Below, one piece after another: positions 22,880 through 38,316 of a stretch of DNA of 64,000 nucleotides. Under the pieces are notes generated by a model. The model saw nothing but the letters and a program-made list of their open reading frames with translations, searched no databases and had not been told where the DNA came from. The stretch spans positions 1-64,000 of the forward strand of contig JBCCYL010000001.1 in NCBI GenBank assembly GCA_039189765.1, read 5' to 3'. The DNA comes from Cyanobacteria bacterium P01_F01_bin.150. Its GTDB lineage: Bacteria > Cyanobacteriota > Cyanobacteriia > CAKZMO01. Positions within the stretch are counted from its first letter, which is position 1. Each line of letters starts with the position of its first letter. A program made the translations under genes and the position numbers.

Positions 22880-24124
22880 TTAAAGATAAACATCGGAAAA
22901 AATTTGAACAATGGAACGATCTTCGTCCGTTTCAGGTTTAATTTGAGTCACGGTTGGGCTAGGCAACAGGCTATCTTGACAATCAACCAAACGCCTGTCT
23001 GGCCGCTGACGTAGTCCAATCGGACGAGTAGTAGCGTAAGTCCTATCATCAATCAGCGTAAAGTCGTCTGGCAGATTGGTAAGCGTACACCCATGGGGCC
23101 GCTGATAGCGATAGCGCCATCGAGTCGCTCGATTTTTGAAGCGAATCACATAGGTCTGAGGCTGAAGAACGGTTTGTTGATTTTGACGACGTGTGGGGGA
23201 CACCTCAGGATTAACCCGGTCGGACTCTAGAAAAATTTCCACCAGCCCCAAGGCGGTCTGAGCCTCTGGAGAATCCGCAAAAACAAACTCATCAATGACC
23301 TCCTCTTGTTGTAAAAGTTGATAGCGACCGGGGGATAGCGAGGCAAAATCCAGGCTCACTGGAAACGCATCTCCGGCAGCATGACGATCGGGAATGACTA
23401 TTTCGGTCGTAAACACAATGGTGTCGTTACCGTCTTGCACGCGCAAAGAAACAAGGTCTCCAGGATTGGCGGATGGAATCGTACCCCGCCAATAGCGGCG
23501 CTGTCGCGGCAGGCGATCGCCCTCCCCAACATACTGACTAGCAGGTAAAACAGCCCAATCATCTGGATTAGGCACCGCAGGGGCTGACTCTAATGGCCGC
23601 AATGCTTCCAGGGTGTTGCCCCCATGAGTTACGAGTTGACCCAGGCGATAACGTTCTCCAGGCCTATAGGCAGGCAACGGCTGGGAAAGGAATGTTTTAT
23701 TCCCCTGCCGATTGTTCCACTGGTTGGAGAAATAGTAGATTTGCCGACGAGCATTTGCCAGTGGCAGGTTGGTGTAGTTGGAAAAGTAGCGATCGCTCAC
23801 CATCAACCAAAAGCAAAGACGATATCCCCGGTCTACAGAAACAACAGTCTGAAAAGTTTCTGTAGACGGTCTAGTGGAACCTTCATGATCCTGTACATCC
23901 ACAAATAGATTTGCCCCAGCGGATTGGGGCCGAAAGACCCAGCGAAGATTGCGAAGACTGCGATCGCAATCCTGACTTGGAATTAGCGTAATGCGATCGA
24001 GAATGCTGTAATCACTGGGCAGAAAGGCAGGCAAAACGGATGGTTGGCCCAAATAAAAATCATGCCAGAGTTCCAGGGTTAAACCTTTTTGATAAATGAT
24101 TTTCATCGCTAAACGGCCCTTCAT
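22880..24124 (-). CDS. Putative cap-adaptor protein (Cis16B/Alg16B-like); alternative start at 24106
   Basis: Located between cap and sheath genes. LELWHDFY at the N-terminus, YVIRFKNRATRWRY, C-terminal IFSDVYL, and an internal CBM-like segment. Confidence 0.6.
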   Translation of the reverse strand: MKGRLAMKIIYQKGLTLELWHDFYLGQPSVLPAFLPSDYSILDRITLIPSQDCDRSLRNLRWVFRPQSAGANLFVDVQDHEGSTRPSTETFQTVVSVDRGYRLCFWLMVSDRYFSNYTNLPLANARRQIYYFSNQWNNRQGNKTFLSQPLPAYRPGERYRLGQLVTHGGNTLEALRPLESAPAVPNPDDWAVLPASQYVGEGDRLPRQRRYWRGTIPSANPGDLVSLRVQDGNDTIVFTTEIVIPDRHAAGDAFPVSLDFASLSPGRYQLLQQEEVIDEFVFADSPEAQTALGLVEIFLESDRVNPEVSPTRRQNQQTVLQPQTYVIRFKNRATRWRYRYQRPHGCTLTNLPDDFTLIDDRTYATTRPIGLRQRPDRRLVDCQDSLLPSPTVTQIKPETDEDRSIVQIFSDVYL

Positions 24125-24142
24125 ATCTTTCTACATTTTTCT

Positions 24143-24721
24143 CTATTCATTGATATAAACTTGGGTGATCACGTCTCCTTCGGCCCTCTGTTTTTCAGCT
24201 TCCAGAGCAATAACACGCAGACGATAAAGAACGAAGGGAACTTGTTTTCCACCTAAAGCACCCCATAGGTGATTAAGTTGTTCAAAGGTCAGACTGTAAA
24301 GGTCAGGTCGAATGGTTACTTCCCTAGAAATATTGCTAGCAACAGGTGTCTCAAAAAATGAAAGCTCCTTCTGCCATTGAAAAAACTCAATAACTCTTGA
24401 TACCAATCGAAGAGACGTTTCGTACTGGTTATGTAATGCCGAAAATAAAATAAACAAATTTAGATGAACTGGGGGATTTTTGTAGATGGTACGCCCCTCG
24501 CTGACCCGATAAGACGGAATATTTTTTAAGGTTGATTCTTCCTGAACATTAACTAGGCTCATGACCACATGGCCATTAAGCTGGTTATTCCCGCCTCCCA
24601 ACTCTTCGGCCATCGCAATATTCTCCACCAAAACAATTTGCCCCGGCCCAAGCTCTGGTTCAAATTCTAGAATATAGCTCTGCAAGTTAAGCTGAACAAG
24701 TCTGATTGCGTCGGAAATCAT
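24143..24721 (-). CDS. Cap / tail terminator protein (DUF4255, Afp16/Pvc16-like)
   Basis: SLVNVQEE...PPVHLNLFILF...LTFEQLNHLWGALGGKQVPFVLYRLR; first gene of the CIS operon. Confidence 0.88.
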   Translation of the reverse strand: MISDAIRLVQLNLQSYILEFEPELGPGQIVLVENIAMAEELGGGNNQLNGHVVMSLVNVQEESTLKNIPSYRVSEGRTIYKNPPVHLNLFILFSALHNQYETSLRLVSRVIEFFQWQKELSFFETPVASNISREVTIRPDLYSLTFEQLNHLWGALGGKQVPFVLYRLRVIALEAEKQRAEGDVITQVYINE

Positions 24722-25225
24722 AGGGCTATAAAGACTGACTTAGGTAGGGACAAAAATCAAAACCGCACAATATGGCTACCCTGCAAAAATATATAAGACT
24801 TACTGCCCTTAAATAGCAATGGCTCCTTTCGTACGACTTTTTATACAAAGCCGTAACCAATAGGAAGCCAAACCGATAGCATACTTGTTCCAACAGCAAC
24901 TAACAGCTTCCGCTGCTTTTATGCAGGATAGAAGGCTAAATAATTTGTTCGATATCTGGCAGTATCTATATCTAAAGTTCAGTCTTGCATGAAAACAGAT
25001 GACGACATCTTCTACCCAAAAAAAAGATATTTTTTTTAATATTGGAGTCTCTATTATGAATTGTTGTTATAAATAAACAAGAAGGATATAGAAAAGTAAT
25101 TCAATATGAGCGGCTTATCATTTAAGCGGGAAAATCCTCTAGCAGTTTGTCGGCGAAAAATGGGGTTACTCCCGACTTCACCAAAAGTGATTAAAAGCCC
25201 CAATAGCCTGTTAATCGACAGATGT
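24722..25225 (-). promoter_or_regulatory. AT-rich intergenic region, likely promoter of the CIS operon
   Basis: About 500 bp non-coding and clearly more AT-rich than the flanks, upstream of a tightly packed operon. No specific operator could be identified. Confidence 0.45.
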
Positions 25226-27394
25226 TTATTGACAGGCAGATATATTCCTATGGCTGTATAGACTAACACGCTTATTGTCGGCACCACTCACGATCAGAAG
25301 TCGGGAGTCTAACTGTTTGATATCAACGCTGTTCAAGCCAGTTTTTAGATGTTTGATGCGGATGCCGTCTAAATGTTTAGTTTGGCGTCTACCTTGGCGA
25401 GTCAGGGGCCACAACGTTACCTGGCCATCGTCACTTACGCTGGTCAAATAACACCCGTTTGCACTCAGTGCCACATCTCGAATCGGGCTTTCAGGGGTCG
25501 GTTGCCATTGATCAATCACACGACAGTCGTCGCCCTGATCCATACAGGATTCCACATCCCACAGCATTAATCGACCCTGATTATCGGCGGTGGCCAAGCG
25601 AAACGGCGTTTGATCCGCAGTATCTAAACCAGTAATGTAATCATCCTGGCCACCGGGGGGGTAGGGGATAGAAAACTCCTTACTCTCCACGCCGTCCTTT
25701 GCCCAAGGCCATAGGAATAATTTGTTGTAGCGCCCAGCGATCGCGACCCCCTCTTCCTCCGGTCCCACCAACGCCATATCGTAAATTGCCAAGTCTGGGA
25801 TAACGAGTTCACGCAGGGGCCGTTCATTCGCGTTGGGTAAACTGTCCTGGCCGATATACCACTGGGAGACCAGACCGCTGCCGTAGCCGCTAAACAAATG
25901 GCGCGCATCTGCGGTTGTCGCCAAGGCCATCACTCGGTCGTCCAGCTCCCGCGTTTGCCCCGTTTGATTAACCAACGTCCGCCGGGGTTGGTTAGCCCCT
26001 TTAAGCAAATCCCATAGCTGAATTTCACCATTTTCGAGGCCCACGGCAATCTGATTATTATCCACTGGACGATACTCTAGGACCCGCACCGCTTTATCAA
26101 GACGAATCGTTTTACCCTCTGGTCGTAACCTGCCCCGATTAACCCGCCAGCGACGAATGGTTTGATCGCTTGACCCACTGATCACTTGGGTGCCGAGGCC
26201 GTTTAATTGAACACTACTGACCAGTTGACGATGCTGCTGACCATAGGTGTGGACATACCAGAGCAGGGCGATCGCCCCCCCAAAGAGTAGTAAAGCTAGG
26301 AACTGTAACCAGCGGGGAAGAACAGGAACCACCGTAACCTGCACTGTTTCAGTATCATTTTTGAGATCCAAATTGGCCCGGTCAGTACTGGCTTGAATCT
26401 CAATCAGCAGTCGTTTTACCCATCCTACCCAGGGCCGCTTTACCTGGATAGTGGTCTCAACCGCTTGGATTTGGCCTGGTGCCAGTTGAACAGCATCGGG
26501 AACCAGGGTTACCTGTCCATCCAGCGGAACGTCTTCCCTATCGCGTTGCTGAAGCCAAGAGGTCCGCACCCGTAGTGTATCGGTCAGGTTGCTATGGTTA
26601 TGCAAATGGAGTTGGGTTTGAACGGAGTTTGACCGCCAATTTGGCCACCATTGCAAAGGTGAAGGAATCGTCAACGCCGTTTGTTCTACGCTTAGCTCAA
26701 AGTGTCCCAGCGGCAGTACATCTACACTTCCAGCGGCCGTTGCTTGGTTGCCATTTTCATCCGCTGCGACGATTTGAAACGGGTAGGCCCGACTGTGGCT
26801 GTGGGATAAATCCGCTGGAATCTGAGCCAGCAGAGTCGCTTCGTGCCAGCGGTTGGGTCTGAGGTTGAGATGGGTCGGGCTGTTCTCCATCAGCCAACTG
26901 TCCAAGACTGGGCATGATAACGTCAGCGGCAGCGGGTAGCGACTCGCGTTATGGATGCGAATGGGAATTTCAATCGTTTCGCCGGGATAGTCTTGGATGG
27001 TTTGGTCCAGCACCTCCAATTTAAACGGCACCGTATCAATGCCTGGTTCGACTCGCAGCCGCATCACATGCCGTTCCTCTGACTGTAATTCTGGGGAAAT
27101 AATGCGGATGGTGATATTAGCGATGCCGACAAAGCCAACTAGAGGCGTATCAAAAATATCCACGGTGTAGGTACTATGGGTTCCCACGGGCACTTTAGAT
27201 GATGTCATCGGAGTCAGGCGATACCATCGCTGCTGTGGCTGCCCCTCTTCACCCGTGACCGACAACAGCACATGGAAGCTGGCTTGGCGATCGCCATAAT
27301 TCACCACGTCCACTGCCAAACGCGCCTCGGAATATCCCGGCCTTACGGTCAGTTCAGTGGCAGATATTTGACTATGGATAACGCTAACAACCAT
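25226..27394 (-). CDS. Single-pass membrane protein: N-terminal Ig-like repeats, TM helix, C-terminal WD40 propeller
   Basis: Three beta-sandwich-like repeats (V.N.G / I.N.S / L.N.SN), TM LQFLALLLFGGAIALLWYV, then WD40 motifs (SGSSDQTIRRW, GEIQLWD, ATADNQGRLMLWD, SVSDDGQVTLW). Confidence 0.75.
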   Translation of the reverse strand: MVVSVIHSQISATELTVRPGYSEARLAVDVVNYGDRQASFHVLLSVTGEEGQPQQRWYRLTPMTSSKVPVGTHSTYTVDIFDTPLVGFVGIANITIRIISPELQSEERHVMRLRVEPGIDTVPFKLEVLDQTIQDYPGETIEIPIRIHNASRYPLPLTLSCPVLDSWLMENSPTHLNLRPNRWHEATLLAQIPADLSHSHSRAYPFQIVAADENGNQATAAGSVDVLPLGHFELSVEQTALTIPSPLQWWPNWRSNSVQTQLHLHNHSNLTDTLRVRTSWLQQRDREDVPLDGQVTLVPDAVQLAPGQIQAVETTIQVKRPWVGWVKRLLIEIQASTDRANLDLKNDTETVQVTVVPVLPRWLQFLALLLFGGAIALLWYVHTYGQQHRQLVSSVQLNGLGTQVISGSSDQTIRRWRVNRGRLRPEGKTIRLDKAVRVLEYRPVDNNQIAVGLENGEIQLWDLLKGANQPRRTLVNQTGQTRELDDRVMALATTADARHLFSGYGSGLVSQWYIGQDSLPNANERPLRELVIPDLAIYDMALVGPEEEGVAIAGRYNKLFLWPWAKDGVESKEFSIPYPPGGQDDYITGLDTADQTPFRLATADNQGRLMLWDVESCMDQGDDCRVIDQWQPTPESPIRDVALSANGCYLTSVSDDGQVTLWPLTRQGRRQTKHLDGIRIKHLKTGLNSVDIKQLDSRLLIVSGADNKRVSLYSHRNISACQ

Positions 27395-27432
27395 AACAAC
27401 TCCTTTTTAGTGCGTGATTCTAAATCACCGCC

Positions 27433-28833
27433 CTATTTAAATGTTCGAATCACTTTTGCTTTCTTTTGCAGTTTCTGAAGACTGGATAAATCTAATGAGC
27501 GACGTCCCCCAAACAAGGGAGCCTGTAGTCGCAGCGACTTGAGCTGTTCTTCCATCCCCTCCTCACGTTCTGTAATAATTTCTGCCATTTCTGAAAACAC
27601 CCCTGCAAATTGGCCAATTTCATCATCCCGATCTGTTAAATGGTTAATGGTTTTAGGCTCAAATTGCTGGGACTTTACCGCCACTGCCGCTTCATGGAGT
27701 CGTAGGATGGGCGTCACGATCCATCGAGCCACCAATCCCCCCAAACCCATCGCTCCCACTAAAACAACTCCCGCTACAATTAGCGTTGTTACGGTTTGCG
27801 CTCGTAGCGCCCCGGTAAAGTCACGGGCCGGGATGGCCACCACTACTAGCCAATCCAGCCCCAGCTCATCTCGCAATGGTCGCGCCGACATAAACACATT
27901 GTCTTTATTAACCTGCTGGCTAATCAGCATATTGTGCTGAATTAGGGACAGATCGCCATACTCATCTAAAAGCTGGTGCATTGTCCCGCTAATTAACGGT
28001 TCTGGGCTATCGAAGGCAGAGATACGGGTTATTTGTTCTGCTTGAGACACCTCTGTCGAAGTGTCTGGTGATGACTCTGGGGTGATGGTAACGGTGTCAC
28101 CAATGGAACTGGCCACAAGCATGCCGCTCTGTTCCACGATAAAAATCTCTCCGGTTTGACCAACTTCAATGCCCCGTAGAAATTCATTAATATTTCGGAT
28201 AAAGAGATCAATGCCCAACACCCCCACGAGCTGATCGTCCGGGTTGTAGATGGGGTGGGCAGCAGTGATTAGCAGCTCCTTGGCAGTAAACCCAACATAA
28301 ACATCACTCCAAACGGGCTGGTTGGCCGCGATCGCCGCCTTATACCATGTTCGTTCCCGAGGATCGTAGTTAAAGGTGTTATTGACGTCACTGGATATTT
28401 CCCCTTGGGGATTAATCTCATATTCGTACGTGCGGCCCTGAGGCATATCGTCAGCCATGACGGCAAAGCGTTGTCCCTTTTGGACACGACTACCGACAAA
28501 ATAGCCTTCAGGATTGCCAAAAAAGATATAGCTGATGGCGGTTGTGGCCTGTAGTTGACTGGAGAAAAACTTTGCCCAGTCTCGCCGTTTTTCCAGGTCT
28601 AGTTCCCCTGATTCAATGGCGCTGGCATTGATCCGATTGACCAATAGTGCCTCCTGGAGCAATCCTGTCACCTGGTCTTGAATCCGATTGGTGCTACTTT
28701 CCATCAGTCGCTCTGAGAGTTGATGCACCGAACGACGGCTGTAGACAAATGAGAAGCTGCCAATCAACCCGATGGCAATTACCAACGGGGTAACAATCAG
28801 GAGCGGAATGGTTTTACGGATGGAGAGGGACAT
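27433..28833 (-). CDS. Cache-HAMP membrane sensor without an output domain
   Basis: TM1, dCache motif YDPRERTWYKAA...WSDVY, TM2, HAMP (PILRLHEAAVAV...DEIGQFAGVFSEM), then only about 50 aa of tail. Confidence 0.8.
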   Translation of the reverse strand: MSLSIRKTIPLLIVTPLVIAIGLIGSFSFVYSRRSVHQLSERLMESSTNRIQDQVTGLLQEALLVNRINASAIESGELDLEKRRDWAKFFSSQLQATTAISYIFFGNPEGYFVGSRVQKGQRFAVMADDMPQGRTYEYEINPQGEISSDVNNTFNYDPRERTWYKAAIAANQPVWSDVYVGFTAKELLITAAHPIYNPDDQLVGVLGIDLFIRNINEFLRGIEVGQTGEIFIVEQSGMLVASSIGDTVTITPESSPDTSTEVSQAEQITRISAFDSPEPLISGTMHQLLDEYGDLSLIQHNMLISQQVNKDNVFMSARPLRDELGLDWLVVVAIPARDFTGALRAQTVTTLIVAGVVLVGAMGLGGLVARWIVTPILRLHEAAVAVKSQQFEPKTINHLTDRDDEIGQFAGVFSEMAEIITEREEGMEEQLKSLRLQAPLFGGRRSLDLSSLQKLQKKAKVIRTFK

Positions 28834-28889
28834 GGTGGGATTTGAGTTATGGAGTTATGGAGTTGAAGGAGTTAGGGCGTTAGGGCGTA

Positions 28890-29038
28890 AGATCCCAGGG
28901 TTCTTGGCGATGCTTTGGCAACTTTAAGGGGTTTTGTTAGAACCCTGGGATCTGATCACGAGTGGGGGCGTAAGATCCCAGGGTTCTTGGTCGTTATGTA
29001 AGCCCCCCCAAGGAGTCTTGGTTAGAACCCTGGGATCT
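28890..29038. repeat. Two tandem ~65-bp mini inverted-repeat elements (AGATCCCAGGGTTCT...AGAACCCTGGGATCT)
   Basis: Copies at 28890-28953 and 28973-29038 have 15-bp perfect terminal IRs and different cores; a third copy lies at 54167-54231. Confidence 0.8.
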
Positions 29039-30505
29039 GGTGGCTACAGATTGCTGGCGTAGCCAGGTAGCTTTTCGTTTAAGGGCATCGTAATAGGCGA
29101 GTTCTAGTTCAGAGGCTTGCTGTCGGCCTGCATTGATCTTGGTGTTGGGTTTTATGTTGGCAGAGGTGCGGTCGATAAATAGTTTGCTGATTCGCTCGTT
29201 ATCTTTCTGAATTTTGGCCTTGAGTCGGGTCTGGCGAGCCGTTACGCGTTTGGCCATGCGGATAAAATTCCTGGCAAGGTGCCCCAGCTCGTCGGGGCGA
29301 TTGCCTAACGATTGCAGCAGTTCGGGTTGAAAGCGATTGGCTTCCACGGCCTGTGCAGCTCGACTGAACAATAGAATTGGATGCACAATATGCCGGACAA
29401 GAGCGTAGACTAATAGCAACAAGATGCCTATGGTGACAATGCCCACGGCAAACATTTGTCGGGCCAGGATAATGGCAGGTTGAAAGGCTTCTGCCTGGCT
29501 CAATTCTGCTAGCAGAGCAACCTCGTATTGGTCGAGCCACCGATAAACGCCCACCACTGGCTTGTTTTGATAATTTAAGTAGAGTCCTTTTCCCTCTTCG
29601 CCCTGAAGCGCTTGGTCAATGCCTTGGCTGGAGAGTTTGGCCTTTTCTGAGTTTATGGACGATCGGGTTTCCTCAGAGCTAAAGCCCGTGACGATCGGTG
29701 TTCCGGCTAGAAAAAGATTGCGTTCATCTATGGTTTTAACCAGGTAGGCTTCTCCACTTTCGCCCAGCCCTGCTCGCTGTCGAATAATCTGGTTGATGGT
29801 TTCAGCTTTGGGAGTAGTGGCCAATAGAATGTTGAGCGATCGCCCTGTTTCATCGATAATGGGGGTGGCAAAGGTGATGGTTGGAACTCCCGCGTTGATA
29901 TAGATATTGGGGATAATAGGCTGAGAATTCTTTGGCTCAGATGTGCGTTCAGTAAAGTAGGTCGTATTGTTTAGGTCGATGCCCTGCCCTCTACGCGCGG
30001 ATTGATTCGACAAAAGAATGGTGCCATCTGGGGTCACAATATCAATGGTATAAAGGTTGTCCTGAATTTCAGTAACGAGCTTGAGGTAGTTTTGCAGCCT
30101 GGCAATGGTTGTCTGCGCGGTTGTTCCGTCTGCTGCGTCAACGCTGCTACTTACTGGACTATGAGCTACTGGGCCGTTGATTACAGAAGAATTGCCTTCG
30201 GCATCAATTACAGAAAAATTGTCCTCTTCCTCAAGATTCAATGCGTTGATGGCGTCTATCACTAGGGGCGATCGCGCCAATGTTGTTGCTTCTCGCTGTT
30301 GAGTTTTAAGCCATTCGAGGAGCTGATATTCCTTAAGCGAAACGGATGACGTTAACTGCTCGTACATCGTTTTTTCAAGGGTGGCTCTTGCTCGATGGTA
30401 GGCACTGTAAGACACTAGCCCAACCGTCACGAATGACAGCAGCGAGAAGGCGGCCATAATCTGGGCAAAGAGATTTTTTCGGAACGGATTGAGGGTGTCC
30501 AACAT
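28994..30505 (-). CDS. Cache-HAMP membrane sensor without an output domain
   Basis: TM1; Cache motifs GLGESGEAYLV...YLNYQNKPVVGVYRWL...LLAELSQAEAF; TM2; HAMP (RPDELGHLARNFIRM); short helical tail. Confidence 0.8.
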   Translation of the reverse strand: MLDTLNPFRKNLFAQIMAAFSLLSFVTVGLVSYSAYHRARATLEKTMYEQLTSSVSLKEYQLLEWLKTQQREATTLARSPLVIDAINALNLEEEDNFSVIDAEGNSSVINGPVAHSPVSSSVDAADGTTAQTTIARLQNYLKLVTEIQDNLYTIDIVTPDGTILLSNQSARRGQGIDLNNTTYFTERTSEPKNSQPIIPNIYINAGVPTITFATPIIDETGRSLNILLATTPKAETINQIIRQRAGLGESGEAYLVKTIDERNLFLAGTPIVTGFSSEETRSSINSEKAKLSSQGIDQALQGEEGKGLYLNYQNKPVVGVYRWLDQYEVALLAELSQAEAFQPAIILARQMFAVGIVTIGILLLLVYALVRHIVHPILLFSRAAQAVEANRFQPELLQSLGNRPDELGHLARNFIRMAKRVTARQTRLKAKIQKDNERISKLFIDRTSANIKPNTKINAGRQQASELELAYYDALKRKATWLRQQSVATRSQGSNQDSLGGLT

Positions 30506-30526
30506 GATAAAGCGTCGAGTGATGGG

Positions 30527-32116
30527 TTACTGTTGAGCCTGAAGCATATGCTGTCGAGAACTGGCGTAGTGCAAGATATTGATGCCGAGTTCCTGGGCAT
30601 CACGCATGGTTGAGCGGGAAAGAGGCGTATCAAACTGCTGACGGCTCCAGGCAGCGGATAGGGAGCCGATGACCAAAATAATGCCCTTATCTGCCAAGAG
30701 ATACATCGGGCCAGTGGGTAACTGGGGCAATGCATCAAAGAGATAGGGGTATTGGGTTAACCCAGAGTCGTAGGACTCGGCCAGGGTAAACGCTAAAGTC
30801 TCGTTTGCTTGCTCCCACTGCTGTAGCCCTTGGACAATGATATTGAGCTGCTGCTGGACAGTGGTTTGACATTCCGATAGCTCATCTTCCAAATCCTGAC
30901 GAATTTGATGAAGTTCACTATCGCCATCTTCAGGTAGGATGCTTAAATCCGCTAGGGCTGAGGTTAGCTCCGCTTGAACGGTATTAAGGCTATTGAGATG
31001 GGTCAGCGTGTCCCGATCGTCATTTTCAATCACCACCGTGCATCCTTGGGCTAAGTATATTTGTAGCTGCTCCAATTCGTTAGGGGATAGGGCGATCGCA
31101 TCTTCGTAGGAGGTGACCAGCACAGTCGGGGGATTTTGGATTTTGGATTTTGGATTTTGGACGGGAAAGGTGGAACGATGGGGAGTTGAAATGCTCCGAT
31201 TCCCCTCTTGGGAGGGGCTAGGGGTGGGTGGATTTTGGATTTTGGATTTTAGATTTTGGTGAGTTGTTTCCCCTTCTTGAGAAAATGTTGGGATGGATAG
31301 ATTGGTGGGGTTATTTGGTTGCTGGTTAGGCGTTAGAGTAATGGGCTGGACGATGGGAGACCCTGCAAGGGTGGGGTATAAACCTGGCAGGGATTGTAGT
31401 AAGGAACTCCAGCGTTGGCATAGGGATGATGACGCCGATGCGATAGAGGACGATAATACGCCGACCTGGACTAGCTGGTTGGCCCGTGCTTGTACTCGAT
31501 GGCGGTGGCGGAGGTCAATGGATTGGGGGGGCGGATTAAAGACATCCGCTGCCGAGTGTAGGGGTTGAGTGTTGCTGGTGAGATGAATCCGACATAGCTC
31601 TACTTCATCAGCATCTGGAGGGGTCGTCCGTTCATTAATCCGAAATTCTTCCTTAACCACGGCGGTCGGTGGAGTTTGCCATTGCTTTGTGGTCGGGTCC
31701 ACATAGGCCAACACCACATAGACGGTCAGGGAGCCATTGGGAGCTGAATCCAATGTCGTATCTTGATTAATCACCTTTGAGGTGATGCGAAAGGTCATGG
31801 GTTCATCCACCACCAGCGGATTTCCCACTAGGTCAATGGCAATTCCTGGCTGAATCTCTATCCAGCGGCGATCGCGCAGCTCCGACGGCACGCCATCCGG
31901 TGCGGACACAACTTTTACCCCTAACCCAGAAACAATACCAGGTTGATGCAGCGACTGGTAATGCAGATTTTGGCGGTGTTGGTAGTAGTGATGGGCCTGC
32001 CACCACCCCTCAGCTGTTAACAAGGACCCGTTGGTGACATAGAGCATTTCCAACGGCTCAATGGCTGGCAGGGGGGCTAGGGGATTAGGTGGGTGGATCA
32101 TGGATGCGGTGGTCAT
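30527..32116 (-). CDS. CIS-associated protein with fibre-base-like N-terminus and probable DUF4159-like C-terminus
   Basis: GSLLTAEGW...HRQNLHYQSLHQPGIVSGLGV...IQPGIAIDLVGN resembles the N-terminus of the 2065..7059 protein; C-terminal RDAQELGINILHYA. Contains an in-frame repeat insertion. Confidence 0.55.
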   Translation of the reverse strand: MTTASMIHPPNPLAPLPAIEPLEMLYVTNGSLLTAEGWWQAHHYYQHRQNLHYQSLHQPGIVSGLGVKVVSAPDGVPSELRDRRWIEIQPGIAIDLVGNPLVVDEPMTFRITSKVINQDTTLDSAPNGSLTVYVVLAYVDPTTKQWQTPPTAVVKEEFRINERTTPPDADEVELCRIHLTSNTQPLHSAADVFNPPPQSIDLRHRHRVQARANQLVQVGVLSSSIASASSSLCQRWSSLLQSLPGLYPTLAGSPIVQPITLTPNQQPNNPTNLSIPTFSQEGETTHQNLKSKIQNPPTPSPSQEGNRSISTPHRSTFPVQNPKSKIQNPPTVLVTSYEDAIALSPNELEQLQIYLAQGCTVVIENDDRDTLTHLNSLNTVQAELTSALADLSILPEDGDSELHQIRQDLEDELSECQTTVQQQLNIIVQGLQQWEQANETLAFTLAESYDSGLTQYPYLFDALPQLPTGPMYLLADKGIILVIGSLSAAWSRQQFDTPLSRSTMRDAQELGINILHYASSRQHMLQAQQ

Positions 32117-32175
32117 GGGTGGATGAGTGGGTGAGTGGGTAAGTACCGCTTGTAGCTTGTAGGATGGGTTAGCTT

Positions 32176-32206
32176 GTAGGATGGGTTAGCGCCAGCGTAA
32201 CCCATC
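32176..32206 (+). repeat. GTAG-family REP-like hairpin
   Basis: GTAG-GATGGGTTAGCGCCAGCGTAACCCATC; related hairpins at 39852-39882, 40823-40876, 40903-40932, 55280-55300, 56770-56802 and 63556-63585. Confidence 0.7.
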
Positions 32207-32288
32207 ATCGTCGGTATATTTATTTCGAGAAATCGCCTTAGTGGGTTAATGGGTGGTGAGTGGGTTAGTAGGTTAGTGGGTTAATGGG

Positions 32289-33395
32289 TTAGTGGGTGGG
32301 CGAGTGGGCGAGTGGGCGCTCAAGCGCTCGGGCGTTATAAGAGGACATCGGAGTAATCCGTAAATCGTAGGTACAGAAGGCTGGACGTTCTTGGTCAATA
32401 ATGGAGTGGACCAGGGCTTCATCAACGGTCAAAGCTTCGGGGACTCGCAAGATCACGACAAAGTGGAAGTCTTGGCCTCGACCGAAGACGGTGGTGGAGC
32501 TAAAAGAGGCACCACCAAATACAGCTCCCTGGCGAGACGGTTCCACGATGCTGATATGTTTTTGGTCTTCTGGTGTATCGTCGTTGTCCAGGGGTAGCCC
32601 CGTTGCCAGGTGCAAATAGAGCCGTAGCCCATAGGCTGTCCCTCGCCAGGTATAGAGTTCGATGGCACGGGACATTAGGCGTCGCTGTTGGGGCCACGAT
32701 AACTGGGGCAGGCGACGCCACCCCACCCAATGGGCCAAAAACGGTAGCATGGCTTCCGGTGCTAATTTGGGGTCTAAATAGGCCCATAAACTAGACCAGG
32801 TTTCCACATCGGGGCGAAAGGTTCGCTCCACAATGGCCATCAAGCGTCCCACAAAGTCAATGTCCTGATAGACCTGGGGTAATAACCGTACGTAAGGACT
32901 ATGGGGTCTGACCACCAGGGTCAGCGGTTCGGAGAGAATGGTGTCTACCACCCCATCTGGGTTAGCCCCGTAAAGATCAATGCGGCCTGAATAGTTAAGG
33001 GGTCGTCGTTCCCCTGGTGCTGCATCGGTGAGGGTTTCAAAAAAGTCGGCGGGCACTTGAAAGGCGATCGCCATTTCTTTTCTTCCCCGCGCTGCCACCT
33101 CACAGGTCACTGTGTCAGTCCCACTTTCTGCTCCCAGTAGAGTCAGGCACCATTTGTCTGGAATATTGCCCTCTAAATGCAGCGTAAAAGTTATGGGACG
33201 ATCCGTCGGGTTATTTAATCGCAGCAATACCTCGCTAGCTTCCCCCGGCAGCAGCAGCAAACTGGCCGTTTCTAGTCCTGCTGTCCCATCATCCGTTGCC
33301 GCAGATAACGCTATCCCATCGGCCAAATTCACGTCAGGAATTCGGCCTGGGATTAAATCAAGGGAAGCAGTGGGTGACGCAAGGGCTTGAACCAT
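32289..33395 (-). CDS. Phage tail protein (P2 gpI-like baseplate component) with N-terminal Ig-like domain
   Basis: LLPQVYQ...YLDPKLAPEAMLPFLAHWVGW...AIELYTWRGTAYGL...IIDQERPAFCTY. Confidence 0.8.
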   Translation of the reverse strand: MVQALASPTASLDLIPGRIPDVNLADGIALSAATDDGTAGLETASLLLLPGEASEVLLRLNNPTDRPITFTLHLEGNIPDKWCLTLLGAESGTDTVTCEVAARGRKEMAIAFQVPADFFETLTDAAPGERRPLNYSGRIDLYGANPDGVVDTILSEPLTLVVRPHSPYVRLLPQVYQDIDFVGRLMAIVERTFRPDVETWSSLWAYLDPKLAPEAMLPFLAHWVGWRRLPQLSWPQQRRLMSRAIELYTWRGTAYGLRLYLHLATGLPLDNDDTPEDQKHISIVEPSRQGAVFGGASFSSTTVFGRGQDFHFVVILRVPEALTVDEALVHSIIDQERPAFCTYDLRITPMSSYNARALERPLAHSPTH

Positions 33396-33424
33396 AGTTC
33401 TAATTTTTAACCATTATTTGGAAC

Positions 33425-35749
33425 TTAATCGTTAACGACACTGACTGAATGCCCTGAATGAATAGTTGGGTCGGCCCAGCTACAAATCATCCCTAGGGGG
33501 CCGGGATCGATGCGAGGAGAAGGAGGCTGTCGAATCCAGCGATTGCCCTCCCTCTCCAGCTTAAATAACTGCACGGCACCCAGATACCGAATTCCTGGAC
33601 TGGCCTGGAGTAGGGAAACAATATCCGACTGATACAGAACCTGGCCAATGGGCCACCCCCGCCGATATCGTCCACCGGTTAATGGATTTAAGAAGTAATA
33701 GAGCAGGGTGCGCAATCGTTCCACTACTTGGGTCTGACCCTCAGCGGAACGCCAGGCCGGATCGAGGGACACTTCTGTTTGCACGGTAACCCCGATGTAC
33801 TCGGGTTCGCGACACTGGATCTGACAGCCCAATAGGCGACGACGGTCAAGATAGGCTGTGACCTGTTGTTCCAATTCAGGACGGAGAGCAAGCTGCTGGG
33901 GTGAGATGCCCTGGTCCTGTTCGACCGATATGCCATCGACCCTAGGCACCAGCATAAGCTGCACAATGCCAGGGGTGTCTGGCGGTAAACAATGGGCACG
34001 AGCGATCGCCCCTTGACCTCCTTGACGCGCCAACTGTTCAAAATCCTCCGGCGTCACTGCCCGGTTATGGGTTCGTAATAGCTGAGGGACTCGAATCGCT
34101 GCCTGTTCCAGAGACTCAGCATTTGAGCCTTGGCGGGCGGGCTGGTAGTTTGTGACCCGAGCCACATAGGGGATGGCAGACTTGAGTACCGTAAGGGATT
34201 GGGCCTGCACATTGCCTTGTTCTCCGCCGCCCGTGCGGTACTGTCCCATGCGAATAACTGCGCCCTTGGGGGGAATGGCACCATACTGGCGCTCCTGCTG
34301 ATGGAGCGATCGCAGTTCCGTTTGCAGCGAGTTGAGGCTGAGTTCCCGTCGCCCCGCCTCTGGAGATACCATCATTTCTGCACTTATTTCTGTGCTTATT
34401 TCTGTGCTCATTTCTGCGCTTAACAAAGTTCCTTCGACTTCATCGGCGAAGCCCTGGTTCAAGCGTTGCCCCAGTCCGTGGGTCAAGAACCGAGTTTGAA
34501 GTTCGCTGCGCTGGCGAAGCTGGGACGGCTCCCGCACCCGAGGTCCAAACTGCACCATCCCCGTAATCGAATCAATGACATAGTGGCGATCGCCTGGCCC
34601 AGATGCGGCAAAGTCAGGCACCTCCTGCCACACTTCCACCTCGCGATTGGGCAGGGTAACGGTAATCGTTTCATCCGGCTTTCGCGTCAGTACCGGAACC
34701 CCCCGCAGTTGAAAAACTTGCCCCGGACTGCCATTACTTTCCCCCAGCACTTCTTCCGTAATCATTTCACATTGACTCCCCGAAACGGTTCCACCAATGG
34801 ACCGCACCGATATCCCGGTAATGCGGGGAGACTGACGATAGGGTGCTTGTCCCTCCTCCGGTGAATCACAGACGCACCGCAGCCAATGGCCCCGATAGGA
34901 GGCAAACTGAGTGACGGGTAATGACAACGGCAAATGCAGAACGATATCGGCACCTTGGATGGGATTCCCCCCCTGTGCGACCAGGGCCGCAAAGCTAAAG
35001 CCCTGGGTTTGATCGTCGGCTTCACTCAGCAAGACCGATCGCCACTGGACGCCATCCCAGGCTTGCCAACGTCGGGGGGGCTGGAAGGGGTTGATGCCTG
35101 CGGGGGTAGCGGCTTGTCCATTGATAGTTAAGGCTAAAACGTTACCGTTTAAGGATGTACTGCCCTCTTCTAAAACCAGATAAAAACAGTTGTTGGCACT
35201 AGGCTGTTCATTAAACAAATTGATTTCGGGACCATTCCACTGGCCTTCTTGACTGCGGTTCCACACATTGCTGAAGCGATCGCGTAATACCGTCGGTTGC
35301 TCTTCCACAGAGGCCGCCGTTAGCAGATGGCGCACTAGGGGCCGACCAATTGTTAATGCTTGGTTTGTGCTAAAAATAATTGCCGCTTCACTGGCCGATC
35401 GTTCCGTTGCCACTTGGGTGCCAGCGGGAATGCGGTATGGCTCCGGCAGTTCGGAAACCAGATAAAAAGTGAGGTGGGCGATCGCGGCCTGGGGTGGCTG
35501 TAGACGAATCCCCAGCAGTTCCAGAAATGCCACGTAGTGACGACGGGGCACCTGATTAAACCGCATCAGCATTTGATCGGTTAACCAAGCAAAGGACTCC
35601 AGCAGCGTTACCCCCGGTTCACTGGGGTTATAGTTGGTCCACTCCGGGCAATACCGGGGAATGCGCTGTAAACACTCTTGTAGCAGGTCATCATAGCGGC
35701 GATCGTCCAGCTCCGCCTTGGGCAAGTTGGGTAAAAAATCCAGGGCCAT
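33425..35749 (-). CDS. Second baseplate J-like assembly protein (compact type)
   Basis: LPKAELDDRRYDDLL...IPRYCPEWTNYNPSEPGVTLLE...YRTGGGEQGNV...RAVTPEDFEQLA...LNPLTGG...GWP.G. Confidence 0.88.
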   Translation of the reverse strand: MALDFLPNLPKAELDDRRYDDLLQECLQRIPRYCPEWTNYNPSEPGVTLLESFAWLTDQMLMRFNQVPRRHYVAFLELLGIRLQPPQAAIAHLTFYLVSELPEPYRIPAGTQVATERSASEAAIIFSTNQALTIGRPLVRHLLTAASVEEQPTVLRDRFSNVWNRSQEGQWNGPEINLFNEQPSANNCFYLVLEEGSTSLNGNVLALTINGQAATPAGINPFQPPRRWQAWDGVQWRSVLLSEADDQTQGFSFAALVAQGGNPIQGADIVLHLPLSLPVTQFASYRGHWLRCVCDSPEEGQAPYRQSPRITGISVRSIGGTVSGSQCEMITEEVLGESNGSPGQVFQLRGVPVLTRKPDETITVTLPNREVEVWQEVPDFAASGPGDRHYVIDSITGMVQFGPRVREPSQLRQRSELQTRFLTHGLGQRLNQGFADEVEGTLLSAEMSTEISTEISAEMMVSPEAGRRELSLNSLQTELRSLHQQERQYGAIPPKGAVIRMGQYRTGGGEQGNVQAQSLTVLKSAIPYVARVTNYQPARQGSNAESLEQAAIRVPQLLRTHNRAVTPEDFEQLARQGGQGAIARAHCLPPDTPGIVQLMLVPRVDGISVEQDQGISPQQLALRPELEQQVTAYLDRRRLLGCQIQCREPEYIGVTVQTEVSLDPAWRSAEGQTQVVERLRTLLYYFLNPLTGGRYRRGWPIGQVLYQSDIVSLLQASPGIRYLGAVQLFKLEREGNRWIRQPPSPRIDPGPLGMICSWADPTIHSGHSVSVVND

Positions 35750-36285
35750 CAGCGTCCCCTCCCGCCAGGGCGCACCGTCACTGGTGCTTTAGCTTGAATA
35801 ATGGGTTGCCCCGTCGCCTTCGTTTGCCTTATACCTGGAATCGCCTTCGTTTCCCTCCCGCCTGTTTGATTAAATTCGCCTTTGAGATAGAAGGGGTACA
35901 CCAGACTCTGTCGTTCGTAAGTGGTGCGGAGTCGATAGTTAATCACGATAAACACAGCCCCCTGATCCGTGCGGGGACGGGCCAGCACTTCAGCTACTTC
36001 AATGCGAGGTTCCCATTGTTCCAGGGCTTCCTGCACCCAAATTCGCATCAACATCAGGGTTTCAGAGTTGATGGGGGCAAACGCCAGTTCTGATAATCGG
36101 CAACCAAAGGTGGGGCGATATAATCGCTCCCCCGGCTCGGTAAGTAAAATCAGCCAAATGGATTCCCGAACGCTCTGCTGTTCGGTGCTAAGGGATAATC
36201 TTCCCTGCTGACTGATGGTTAGAGGAAACGAAAATCCTTGACCCAGATGGGCCATCCGTCTTCGCTGAGTTACACGATTAACCAT
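35749..36285 (-). CDS. Second GPW/gp25 baseplate wedge protein (possible start at 36255)
   Basis: LGQGFSFP...VRESIWLILLTEPGERLYRPTFGC...WEPRI...LVYPFYL; its stop overlaps the next ATG (TGATG). Confidence 0.9.
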   Translation of the reverse strand: MVNRVTQRRRMAHLGQGFSFPLTISQQGRLSLSTEQQSVRESIWLILLTEPGERLYRPTFGCRLSELAFAPINSETLMLMRIWVQEALEQWEPRIEVAEVLARPRTDQGAVFIVINYRLRTTYERQSLVYPFYLKGEFNQTGGRETKAIPGIRQTKATGQPIIQAKAPVTVRPGGRGR

Positions 36286-36389
36286 TTGCCCTCGCTATAC
36301 GCTGGAGTGCCTTTGGTTATAGAGCAGCCTTAGATCACATTCCATCCGACCAAAGTCGGGTTCGTTATACTGCCAACAGCTGAGGTTTA

Positions 36390-36420
36390 GAGGTGTGTCC
36401 CCGCTGCGTGGGGACACCTC
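36390..36420. terminator. GC-rich hairpin between the NRPS tailoring genes and the second baseplate module
   Basis: GAGGTGTGTCCCC-GCTGCGT-GGGGACACCTC stem-loop about 40 bp downstream of the stop at 36462; no clear U-tract. Confidence 0.35.
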
Positions 36421-36461
36421 ATGAAAAGTCCAGCACCTAGCTGTACAAAGTATATTTGAAC

Positions 36462-37043
36462 TCAATGAAACGGACAGCGATCGCCCTCTTTACTGCCAAA
36501 CCGTCCCTCCACCCGATGATTTGGATCAAGGGTTTGAGTGCGAACGCGACCAAATTTTTCTAGGGTATCCGTTGCCGTGCTGCGTTCAAAGCGAATGCTA
36601 CCGCCTTCGTCTCCCACAAACTTTTTACACACTGCCTTATGGGAGCGGGCCAGTTCAGCATAGGCTTCTACAAAGCGATCGTGGTAGGAATGGAGGGCTG
36701 GGGGTAGCGTAGCAAAGGTCGGCGACAGACGTTTCCAGAGCTGCACCAGCACCGCGTGTTCCCAAGACATAAGCCCGCTAAAGTTATCGGACTGCACATG
36801 GGGAGGAGTCATACTAGGACGGACGACAGTTTCGTAGTCCTGGGTGCTAAAGCTTCCAGCCAACTCCATCGATGCGGCTGATGCCAGCATTAGGGTGGTG
36901 GCGGTATCGAGTTCGACCTGGGCCGAAGGGATGTCGTTAAGGGCGATCGCCTCTTCAAATCGACGCAAACACATTAGCAACCCTTGGACGTTAACAAAGA
37001 AAGACCAGTGAAACCCTTGCCAGGTTTGTTGAACAGAAGTCAT
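36462..37043 (-). CDS. Putative heme-dependent aromatic (tyrosine) hydroxylase, TyrH/LmbB2/SfmD-like C-terminal domain
   Basis: YETVVRPSMTPP...FSGLMSWEH and H..VC.KF resemble motifs of the tryptophan-dioxygenase-superfamily aromatic oxygenases; ends in CPFH. Confidence 0.5.
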   Translation of the reverse strand: MTSVQQTWQGFHWSFFVNVQGLLMCLRRFEEAIALNDIPSAQVELDTATTLMLASAASMELAGSFSTQDYETVVRPSMTPPHVQSDNFSGLMSWEHAVLVQLWKRLSPTFATLPPALHSYHDRFVEAYAELARSHKAVCKKFVGDEGGSIRFERSTATDTLEKFGRVRTQTLDPNHRVEGRFGSKEGDRCPFH

Positions 37044-37205
37044 GGGAGTTAGGGAGTTAGGGAGTTAGGGAGTTGGGGAGTTAGGGAGTTAGGGAGTTGG
37101 GGAGTTGGGGAGTTGGGGAGTTGGGGAGTTAGGGAGTTGGGGAGTTGGGGAGTTGGGGGATAGCGTACTCCGGTTCCCCTCCTGGGAGGGGCTAGGGGTG
37201 GGTCT
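37044..37205. repeat. Heptamer tandem repeat (GGGAGTT/GGAGTTG, STRR-like) plus CCCCTCCTGGGAGGGGCTAGGGGTGGG element
   Basis: About 16 consecutive heptamers followed by the palindromic core. Confidence 0.9.
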
Positions 37206-37293
37206 GTTGGATTTTGGCCCCTGGTTCCCAGACTCCGGCTGGGAGCCTAATAGGGAGACTCCGGCTCGGTGTAGGAGCCAGAGTCTCGGGTGT

Positions 37294-37782
37294 TTATTCA
37301 AGATTAAAAATACGGGTAAGGAGAAGGGCGATTGCCTCAAATCCTTGTCGTTGTCGGATGACATTATTCGGGTCTAAATTGGGATTTTGATTACACAAAT
37401 AAAGAAATTGACGATAGGTTAGTAGGACACTGCGGACAATGCAGATGGCAGGGGTTTCGGACTCAATATGCTGAATATTAAAGTAGCGATCGTAATCGAT
37501 TATTTCCCATTGCTTAAGGGAGATTTTTTCTTTGGTTGTATTGGGAATAGACTGATGGCCTGTGCCTAGGGTGGCGATCGCCTGATTAATCAGAGCAATA
37601 CTCTCCTTAAAAGGACACTTCACCATCGTTTCTTCTTTTATTTTTTCCTGCTCTAAGGATGTTATTAACTGAGCTAATGCATGGGTAACAACCTCTTTTT
37701 CTTGAATAGATAAAGTAAGGTCAGTTGGCAAATCCCACGGCACCAGCAAGTCAAGATTCAAGTTAGATAAATCATCGGTCAT
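37294..37782 (-). CDS. Hypothetical protein of the NRPS tailoring block
   Basis: 162-aa ORF co-oriented between MbtH and the hydroxylase-like gene. Confidence 0.65.
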   Translation of the reverse strand: MTDDLSNLNLDLLVPWDLPTDLTLSIQEKEVVTHALAQLITSLEQEKIKEETMVKCPFKESIALINQAIATLGTGHQSIPNTTKEKISLKQWEIIDYDRYFNIQHIESETPAICIVRSVLLTYRQFLYLCNQNPNLDPNNVIRQRQGFEAIALLLTRIFNLE

Positions 37783-37914
37783 CCTATAAAAATACCCATC
37801 TGCCTGGGATAACTTACTGGAGTCCCTGTTAGCGAAGCCATGCCCGATAGGGTTATAGAGTACAGCCGCAGTTTTAACTGCCAGGTTACGGCCAACTTAC
37901 TCACCGACATATGT

Positions 37915-38127
37915 CTACTTAGCATTTTCAGCTTCAGCCATCGCCTTTCGCAAACTCAGAGGACGCATATCGGTCCACACTTCATTAATATAGTCCAAAC
38001 ATTCTTGCTTGGTTCCAGTTTTCCCTTCCGCTCTCCAGCCATAGGGAATTTCCCGATAGGTGGGCCACACCGAATACTGTTCTTCAATACTAACAACAAC
38101 ATTGTAAATCATATTATCTTCACTCAT
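37915..38127 (-). CDS. mbtH: MbtH-like protein
   Basis: EEQYSVWP....P.GW...[22 protein letters not shown]. Confidence 0.96.
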
Positions 38128-38316
38128 CTTTTGTTCTCCTTTTAAGTGTCTATCTTCAAATGTAATTTTTAAGGTAATAAATTAACCCACCCCTAGCCCC
38201 TCCTAGGAGGGAATCGATCTGTCCAAAATCCAAAACTTGTGCTGAGCATGTCAAATGCGCCAATTGTTTTACGCAAAGATTCTTTGCTCAATGACGACCC
38301 AGAATATTCACCTGTA

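Follow-up and report, generated by a model that had tools for sequence, protein, structure and literature searches.

Baseplate-wedge and membrane-adaptor genes of a probable second, CIS-Sc-related contractile injection system scattered over a cyanobacterial genome

Among solved systems the closest to the genes considered here is CIS-Sc, the contractile injection system (CIS) of Streptomyces coelicolor (dbeCIS subtype IId). According to passages of its description, CIS-Sc is cytoplasmic and has no fibres, its wedge is made up of two Cis11 copies and a single Cis12 and is likened to that of pyocin R2, and the system depends on CisA, a membrane protein encoded immediately downstream of the baseplate genes, 'where fibres are usually encoded' (PMC12237407). 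The same passages give CisA as the only known membrane contact of cytoplasmic CIS in Streptomyces and treat its role in sensing as speculative (PMC12237407), and in passages of another report CisA relatives are confined to actinomycetes and class IId regions are noted in filamentous cyanobacteria (PMC10020575). In Anabaena, the thylakoid-anchored CIS (tCIS; all3313-all3327) is held by Cis12 extensions, a transmembrane (TM) helix in Cis13, and Cis19, and the numbering from all3317 to all3314 in the same text implies the gene order Cis11-Cis13-Cis12-Cis19 (PMC8894136). Extracellular CIS (eCIS) loci that are split, with core genes at two or more distant places, are also already known, from 13 genomes in the excerpted survey of Chen et al. 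2019, one example being T6SSiv of Amoebophilus (PMC6899500). How cytoplasmic CIS meet the membrane and what fires them is the question raised by the seven-gene module that we analysed here, which occupies positions 25226-36285 of a 64,000-nucleotide stretch (hereafter the window) from the draft genome of Cyanobacteria bacterium P01_F01_bin.150. We consider it likely that this module is one half of a second CIS, separate and related to CIS-Sc, namely the half with the baseplate wedge and the membrane adaptor, and not an alternative baseplate of the tCIS encoded next to it.

All seven open reading frames (ORFs) of the module lie on the minus strand at the coordinates of an initial annotation of the window, and Pfam agreed with the gene list given there. 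The features are as follows, with lengths in amino acids (aa).

35749..36285, minus strand: gp25/Cis9-like sheath initiator, 178 aa (Pfam GPW_gp25, E 9.5e-23)
33425..35749, minus strand: Baseplate J/Cis11-like wedge protein, 774 aa (Pfam Baseplate_J, E 5.2e-12)
32289..33395, minus strand: P2 gpI/Cis12-like wedge protein, 368 aa (Pfam Tail_P2_I, E 3.3e-6)
30527..32116, minus strand: DUF4159 protein in the tail-fibre gene position, 529 aa (Pfam DUF4159, E 3.3e-4, below cut-off)
31124..31291, minus strand: in-frame insert, apparently repeat-derived, in the DUF4159 gene, about aa 276-331 (low model confidence, multi-contig tblastn matches)
28994..30505, minus strand: first membrane sensor, 503 aa, with TM segment, dCache_1, TM segment, HAMP and a short coiled tail (Pfam, hydropathy scan)
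27433..28833, minus strand: second membrane sensor, 466 aa, with TM segment, dCache_1, TM segment and HAMP (Pfam, hydropathy scan)
25226..27394, minus strand: bitopic Ig-TM-WD40 protein, 722 aa, with three immunoglobulin (Ig)-like domains, a TM helix and a seven-bladed WD40 propeller (Pfam WD40, AlphaFold)

A Pfam scan found no sheath, tube, VgrG or PAAR gene inside this run and placed it, as the initial annotation had, between non-ribosomal peptide synthetase (NRPS) genes and a CIS operon that brings gp25, J and large baseplate proteins of its own. Two readings had been offered there, namely that one tail and spike is built on two alternative baseplates, or that the module is the distal half of a second CIS encoded elsewhere. 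Assembled from a metagenome, the genome is a draft of 10.6 Mb in 350 contigs with 4.72% contamination (G000 in the genome set below; C numbers denote its contigs), and a search across it returned matches for six gp25 genes, six J genes, sheaths on six contigs and 14 tube genes. Complete CIS loci were found in the window together with the end of C13, on C17 and on C115. Tail loci lacking gp25 and J were present at C5:103-123k, at C25:18-30k and on C223, and wedge loci lacking a sheath were present at C5:53-57.6k, in the window module and on C146. Baseplate-less tails do occur elsewhere in this genome, on C25 and C94, which supports the second of the two readings. The C25 locus encodes an ATPase, a cap protein, a LuxR-type regulator, a sheath and three tube proteins, and the C94 locus, a paralog of the C5 tail's second half, encodes a tube, a 2684-aa protein, a tube initiator and VgrG, together with a divergent 892-aa accessory protein. 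In this draft the J gene and the sheath gene stand on different contigs, with real non-CIS flanks.

We examined the lineage of the module against solved structures. The best solved relative of its J protein was chain 9gtp_1K (652 aa; E 9.2e-103), and residues 167-348 of gpI matched 9gtp_E (190 aa; E 7.3e-9). We take 9gtp to be the Streptomyces CIS-Sc baseplate or particle of an eLife 2025 paper, in which this code is cited once. The J protein matched AlgoCIS Cis11 at an E value of 4.6e-4 only, and no match to the Anabaena tCIS chains was obtained at E<=0.01. The C25 sheath likewise matched 8bky, 8bl4 and 9gtp with E values of 6e-122 to 4e-119 versus 8.5e-55 for the Anabaena tCIS sheath, with CIS-Sc chains ranking ahead of tCIS, AlgoCIS, PVC and AFP. 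Judged by these matches the module lineage is CIS-Sc-like and other than that of the neighbouring tCIS, its place in subtype IId being given by likeness to CIS-Sc and not by a computed dbeCIS subtype. In addition to having CIS-Sc as the source of the closest solved sheath, Cis11 and Cis12, the system resembles it in its short J-type Cis11, small Cis12 and lack of a conventional fibre gene; it differs in that gpI has 368 aa versus 190 aa and in that the cyanobacterial loci are often split. Within the genome, the closest paralogs of the wedge genes are those on C5 (gp25 48%, J 40% and gpI 40% identity), and the gp25 of the module is only 33% identical to the tCIS gp25 of the same window.

Maximum-likelihood trees were then compared for J and the sheath. 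The window J is sister to the J of genome G044 (support 96/94), as is the C25 sheath to that of G044 (100/99), and J and sheath from C5 each group with those of G190 and G010 (support 100). Furthermore, the block in G185 and G166 ends with accessory proteins of 872 and 916 aa, whose ortholog, in divergent orientation to the tube gene, is found at C94:12800-15034 (36-38% identity, E 1e-138 to 1e-153). Because of this tree pairing and the accessory ortholog on C94, we group C25 and C94 with the window module in one system and place the two C5 loci, together with a trio of genes at C120:11856-19186, in a second. The C120 trio is paralogous and consists of a DUF4159-like protein (482 aa), an Ig-TM-WD40-like protein (867 aa) and a 1041-aa protein, and is probably the accessory set of the C5 system. 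The CIS to which the window module is assigned is thus scattered over at least three loci in this genome: C25, C94 and the window module.

The same pairing was followed through 301 cyanobacterial genomes, with thresholds of E<=1e-100 for J, E<=1e-150 for the C25 sheath and E<=1e-40 for the WD40 protein. The J type was found in 75 of the 301 and the sheath type in 77, with both present in 73. The two genomes with J only are 85-87% complete, and three of the four with the sheath only have a weaker J match (1e-63 to 1e-77). In closed genomes (G044, G015, G061, G040, G054, G106, G162, G146 and G251) J and sheath lie 0.4-2.8 Mb apart, for example 1.49 Mb in G044, 2.8 Mb in G015, 617 kb in G061, 447 kb in G040, 412 kb in G054, 1.49 Mb in G106 and 1.6 Mb in G162. 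They are close together in others, separated by 1.4 kb and divergent in G185 and by 8 kb in G237, and in G059, G129, G190 and G124 a single operon contains sheath, tubes, tube initiator, VgrG, PAAR or DUF4280, gp25, J and gpI. VgrG in the relatives' operons is a single ORF, 564-655 aa long, after which comes a PAAR or DUF4280 protein. As the same genes are megabases apart in some genomes and in one operon in others, the wedge genes belong to this CIS and the lineage tends towards splitting; a split layout is common for it in cyanobacteria. The system shares with the split eCIS of Chen et al. the placement of core genes at two or more distant sites, and differs from them in that splitting recurs across a lineage found in about a quarter of the 301 genomes and has yielded at least three pieces in this one.

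The genes downstream of the wedge also accompany J. A match to the WD40 protein was obtained in 76 of the 301 genomes, every one of which also has a J match (72 at E<=1e-100 and four at 1e-63 to 1e-77), and in 72 of the 75 J genomes, the three without it being G181, G103 and G129. In 54 genomes from many families, this one included, J and the WD40 gene share a contig, the latter 2-7 kb downstream, and in C5-type systems the WD40 gene lies on the contig of the CIS operon, 10-12 kb upstream of the sheath (G190, G010, G093 and G112). The gpI protein has 488 relatives at E<=1e-8 under the source name 'phage tail protein', and in most annotated loci its gene comes directly after J with the DUF4159 gene next. 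Relatives are recorded from Calothrix sp. PCC 7507, Cylindrospermum stagnale PCC 7417 and Nodularia, among others. We annotated the stretch from gpI to the WD40 gene in 26 genomes, leaving out G024 and G061, and found the order J, gpI, DUF4159 protein, (sensor), WD40 protein, with a sensor between the DUF4159 and WD40 genes in 15 of the 26; judging by locus tags, two genes could also fit at this place in three close relatives. The position that holds CisA in CIS-Sc is here filled by three to four genes (DUF4159, one or more HAMP sensors, and Ig-TM-WD40), whose architectures appear unrelated to CisA. On C5 the genes after gpI encode a histidine kinase and a LuxR regulator; after gpI in G010, and again near the tail on C25, come a DUF1822 protein and a CHAT-CHASE2 protein; and CHASE2 proteins are found within the CIS operons of G059 and G155.

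To better describe the protein in the fibre position, structural models were analyzed. Orthologs of the DUF4159 protein range from 389 to 543 aa and pass the Pfam cut-off with up to 50.9 bits versus 25.9, and the AlphaFold model of the window protein has a mean predicted local distance difference test score (pLDDT) of 84.5 and a predicted template modelling score (pTM) of 0.84. Its C-terminal domain (residues 215-520) matches 4i66 (Z 15.3, root-mean-square deviation (rmsd) 3.5, 186 residues aligned) and also glutamine-amidotransferase and ThuA-like folds (Z 8.5-9.6), with a helical hairpin inserted. The N-terminal domain (residues 31-210) matches the N-domain of the receptor-binding protein (RBP) of lactococcal phage 1358 (Z 8.8, rmsd 5.5, 139 residues aligned) and the tail fibre of cyanophage A-1(L) (Z 7.5), and Foldseek matched it to TssK structures 5y0e, 6n38 and 5mwn (E 6e-3 to 3e-2, probability 0.8-0.94). 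The label 'fibre-base-like' of the initial annotation is therefore borne out in part, by middling N-domain matches to phage RBP N-domains and TssK, and not beyond them. A complex prediction of three N-domains (residues 22-230) with gpI scored 0.22 against a mark of 0.32 and, having been run with no controls, counts neither way. Residues 278-325 have a pLDDT under 50 and form a disordered, proline- and serine-rich insert that matches dozens of unrelated contigs in tblastn; a 91-aa ORF at 37089-37364 is made of the same kind of sequence and likewise matches many contigs. The insert looks like a dispersed small repeat element.

The 722-aa protein was modelled with a pLDDT of 86.3 as three beta-sandwich domains, a helix at residues 361-384 and a propeller at 392-716, in agreement with the 'Ig-TM-WD40' architecture first proposed for it. 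Cysteines C617 and C624 of the propeller are invariant across 28 sequences. Given these two residues and the lack of a signal peptide before the 350 N-terminal residues, we favour a topology in which the Ig domains would be inside and the propeller outside. Each of the two Cache-HAMP proteins has two TM segments flanking its Cache domain by hydropathy scan, those of the 503-aa protein lying at residues 13-31 and 352-370, and no output domain after HAMP. Over 472 aa the 466-aa sensor shares 31% identity with the dCache-HAMP-cNMP protein that fills the corresponding slot in G185. Across relatives the slot is filled by dCache-HAMP-cNMP_binding proteins (G185, G136, G237, G038 and G276), by Tll0287-like-(HAMP)-cNMP_binding proteins (G027, G277 and G137), or by dCache-HAMP proteins only (G044, G120, G106, G054, G011, G242 and, in two copies, the window). 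In G027, G277 and G137 the input domain appears, by domain comparison, to have been swapped, with a Tll0287-like domain in place of dCache and the remaining protein kept.

These data, which establish gene content, synteny, co-occurrence, domain folds, lineage and the split arrangement, allow a working model to be sketched in which the physical contacts, the membrane topology, the trigger and the outcome are all inferred. The gp25, J and gpI proteins would assemble in the cytoplasm into the wedges from which sheath polymerisation starts, the tail parts coming from genes elsewhere, and the CIS-Sc structure suggests a ratio of two J to one gpI. The soluble DUF4159 protein, in the fibre position, could dock on the wedge via its RBP/TssK-like N-domain and link the particle to the bitopic Ig-TM-WD40 protein, which would act as a CisA-like membrane adaptor, and the Cache-HAMP sensors may gate docking or firing on a signal from outside the cytoplasm. 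The Cache- or Tll0287-HAMP-cNMP sensors of relatives could add a cyclic-nucleotide signal, and the outcome may be stress-induced firing within the producer cell, as in Streptomyces. [quoted passage not shown] The DUF4159 N-domain may have an RBP-shoulder-like fold, to judge from weak Foldseek matches to TssK; its C-domain is DUF4159/GATase1-like instead of a TssK head, and TssJLM genes were not seen. The conservation of synteny and the phyletic co-occurrence lend support to the suggestion of the initial annotation that membrane sensors belong with this baseplate, and their physical coupling to it is plausible but unproven. We put forward tentatively, as a possibility that we would not yet call likely, that cyanobacterial CIS-Sc-type systems are sensor-gated, with a TssK-like DUF4159 adaptor, the Ig-TM-WD40 protein and an exchangeable sensor forming a membrane docking and trigger complex that turns an outside or cyclic-nucleotide signal into baseplate triggering.

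Several observations weigh against the proposed system or its membrane coupling. That C25, C94 and C1 belong to one organism rests on binning, as the genome is a metagenome-assembled draft, and the full split cannot be drawn because the VgrG gene of C94 runs off the contig end. One taxon, G230, is incongruent between the J and sheath trees. The match of the DUF4159 N-domain to the phage RBP is middling (Z 8.8, rmsd 5.5), the fold matches of this domain are no proof of homology, and TssK was not among the top 50 VIA rows for it. The topology of the WD40 protein is not settled by charge bias round its TM helix (K+R 1.2 versus 1.1). The sensor slot is empty in 11 of the 26 annotated loci, and as unlinked Cache-HAMP paralogs score equally, orthology of the window's sensors to the linked sensors is unproven. 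The C120 trio has as neighbours a Ser/Thr kinase, VanY and a pentapeptide protein, and no CIS gene in its surroundings. Expression data for the region did not turn up; the sequencing runs listed were three DNA runs of a single study, one of them probably the source. In the papers looked at we found none linking DUF4159, WD40 or HAMP-cNMP proteins to a CIS, and supplements of the dbeCIS and Streptomyces papers may list cyanobacterial IId loci.

Two features speak for the two-baseplate reading of the initial annotation, in which the tCIS tail and spike are assembled on either their own or a sensor-tethered baseplate: the tCIS cap gene begins 504 bp downstream of the module end on the same strand, and Pfam found no AAA ATPase beside the tCIS operon within the window (a partial AAA ATPase match lies at C13:93192-93896, about 12 kb beyond the tape-measure fragment described next). 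This operon, at window 3-24721 on the minus strand, is the ortholog of the Anabaena tCIS and runs from cap, sheath, tubes, VgrG, PAAR and gp25 to a 1360-aa J, 164-, 1576- and 1664-aa proteins and a tape-measure gene that is cut off by the contig start, the last 46 aa of which recur at the end of C13 (near G000:C13 105754-105891). The 1360-aa J corresponds to All3317 (Cis11; E 0), the 164-aa protein to All3316 (Cis13; E 5.3e-43) and the 1664-aa protein to All3314 (Cis19; E 3.5e-273), and these matches, with the Anabaena gene order, indicate that the operon has its own baseplate and its own membrane anchors, holding Cis9, Cis11, Cis13, Cis12-sized and Cis19 genes. The tCIS resembles the system proposed here in being a cyanobacterial CIS tied to the membrane; the module, however, has none of its anchors, its gp25 is closer to the C5 paralog than to that of the tCIS, and its J is of the CIS-Sc lineage with its own sheath type in 73 of 75 genomes. 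Moreover, tCIS-type Cis11, Cis12, Cis19, tape-measure or cap genes were found in none of the 20 relatives' loci fetched, so that linkage of the module with a tCIS operon is not conserved among them; we read their adjacency here as incidental. With matching tail loci elsewhere in the genome, a shared tail on two baseplates is very improbable, also by the tests that the initial annotation itself had set for it. Still less credible is the notion of a P2-like prophage or tailocin baseplate that survives as a decaying remnant. The gpW-gpJ-gpI order and Pfam families are indeed those of the P2/R2-pyocin wedge, and gpI matches Tail_P2_I, but the gpH/gpG fibre pair is absent and the Pfam scan of the window turned up none of the genes of a phage setting (gpV, gpH/gpG, capsid, terminase or lysis genes). 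All module frames are intact, J orthologs in many families are 50-60% identical with frames of about 740 aa and no stops among the matches listed, and the block is conserved alongside cyanobacterial CIS genes.

The membrane genes raise two further alternatives. If only gp25, J and gpI belonged to the CIS, the DUF4159, Cache-HAMP and WD40 genes would be an independent membrane signalling unit travelling along with them, as the setting of the C120 trio, the loci without a sensor and the variation of the sensor domain between dCache and Tll0287-like could suggest. We regard this as unlikely, since all 76 genomes with the WD40 gene have the J type and 72 of 75 J genomes have the WD40 gene, the order is fixed in 54 genomes of many families, and the C5-type WD40 gene lies on the CIS-operon contig in G190, G010, G093 and G112; the C120 trio itself fits as the set missing from the C5 system. 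Somewhat more doubtful again is an extracellular CIS in which the DUF4159 protein is a tail fibre or receptor-binding protein and the membrane proteins serve assembly or release. Its N-domain is similar to those of phage RBPs and fibres, and eCIS_core (DUF4157) proteins adjoin the tail loci, yet the C-domain is GATase1/ThuA-like and no known receptor-binding head, and the nearest characterised relative is described, in passages of its report, as cytoplasmic and fibre-less (PMC12237407). The reading that best accommodates these data remains that of a separate, probably CIS-Sc-related system of which the module encodes the wedge and membrane-adaptor half.

Other features of the window and genome were recorded alongside. 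Scans of 24000-38500 gave fewer sites than shuffled sequence for both promoters (8 versus 13.7) and terminators (14 versus 15.6). An 18-nucleotide (nt) stretch at window 36343-36360, 75 nt upstream of the gp25 start, recurs with two mismatches at C94:12418-12435, 227 nt upstream of the tube gene (tube263), and nowhere else in the 10.6 Mb at up to two mismatches. As its 13-nt core is present in none of 16 relatives' gp25 upstream regions, we make no claim of a shared regulatory motif. On C25 the cap and sheath genes are separated by one for a LuxR-type response regulator, and such a gene is also found directly upstream of gp25 in G044. Outside the annotated loci, C25:10060-12000 and C93:34458-35729 carry further CIS-type genes, namely an AAA ATPase with 46% identity to that of C25 and a cap-like gene (33%). 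On C146 there are a tube initiator, a spike, gp25, two J genes, a 745-aa protein and a DUF6519 protein, and on C223 an 869-aa sheath, a tube, a T4_baseplate-domain protein, a cap, an ATPase and an eCIS_core protein; these apparently constitute a third split CIS of another type, a split that is not certain because both contigs are short. On its other flank, upstream, the module is followed by small ORFs without a Pfam match and then by NRPS tailoring genes (class-III aminotransferase, methyltransferase and a CmlA_N/reductase protein by Pfam) and assembly genes. Window positions 38317-64000 form a large NRPS cluster, whose products include a CmlA_N diiron beta-hydroxylase joined to TubC_N docking and reductase domains (40919-44578), a multi-module protein of 3029 aa, and an adenylation protein in which a nitroreductase domain is embedded (61068-63899).

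Taken together, our analysis has consequences for how such loci are read. With wedge genes often megabases from tail genes, locus-based CIS surveys would undercount these systems or mis-split them, and an 'orphan baseplate' should prompt a whole-genome search before an exotic reading. The cyanobacterial counterpart of the CisA slot holds recognisable signalling parts, namely dCache or Tll0287-like domains, HAMP, sometimes a cNMP-binding domain, a possible TssK-like adaptor and a WD40 membrane protein, and as these genes are conserved over many families, the trigger question becomes open to genetics and ligand assays. If the tentative sensor-gated model proved true, about a quarter of cyanobacterial genomes would encode a signal-controlled device for self-lysis or effector release.

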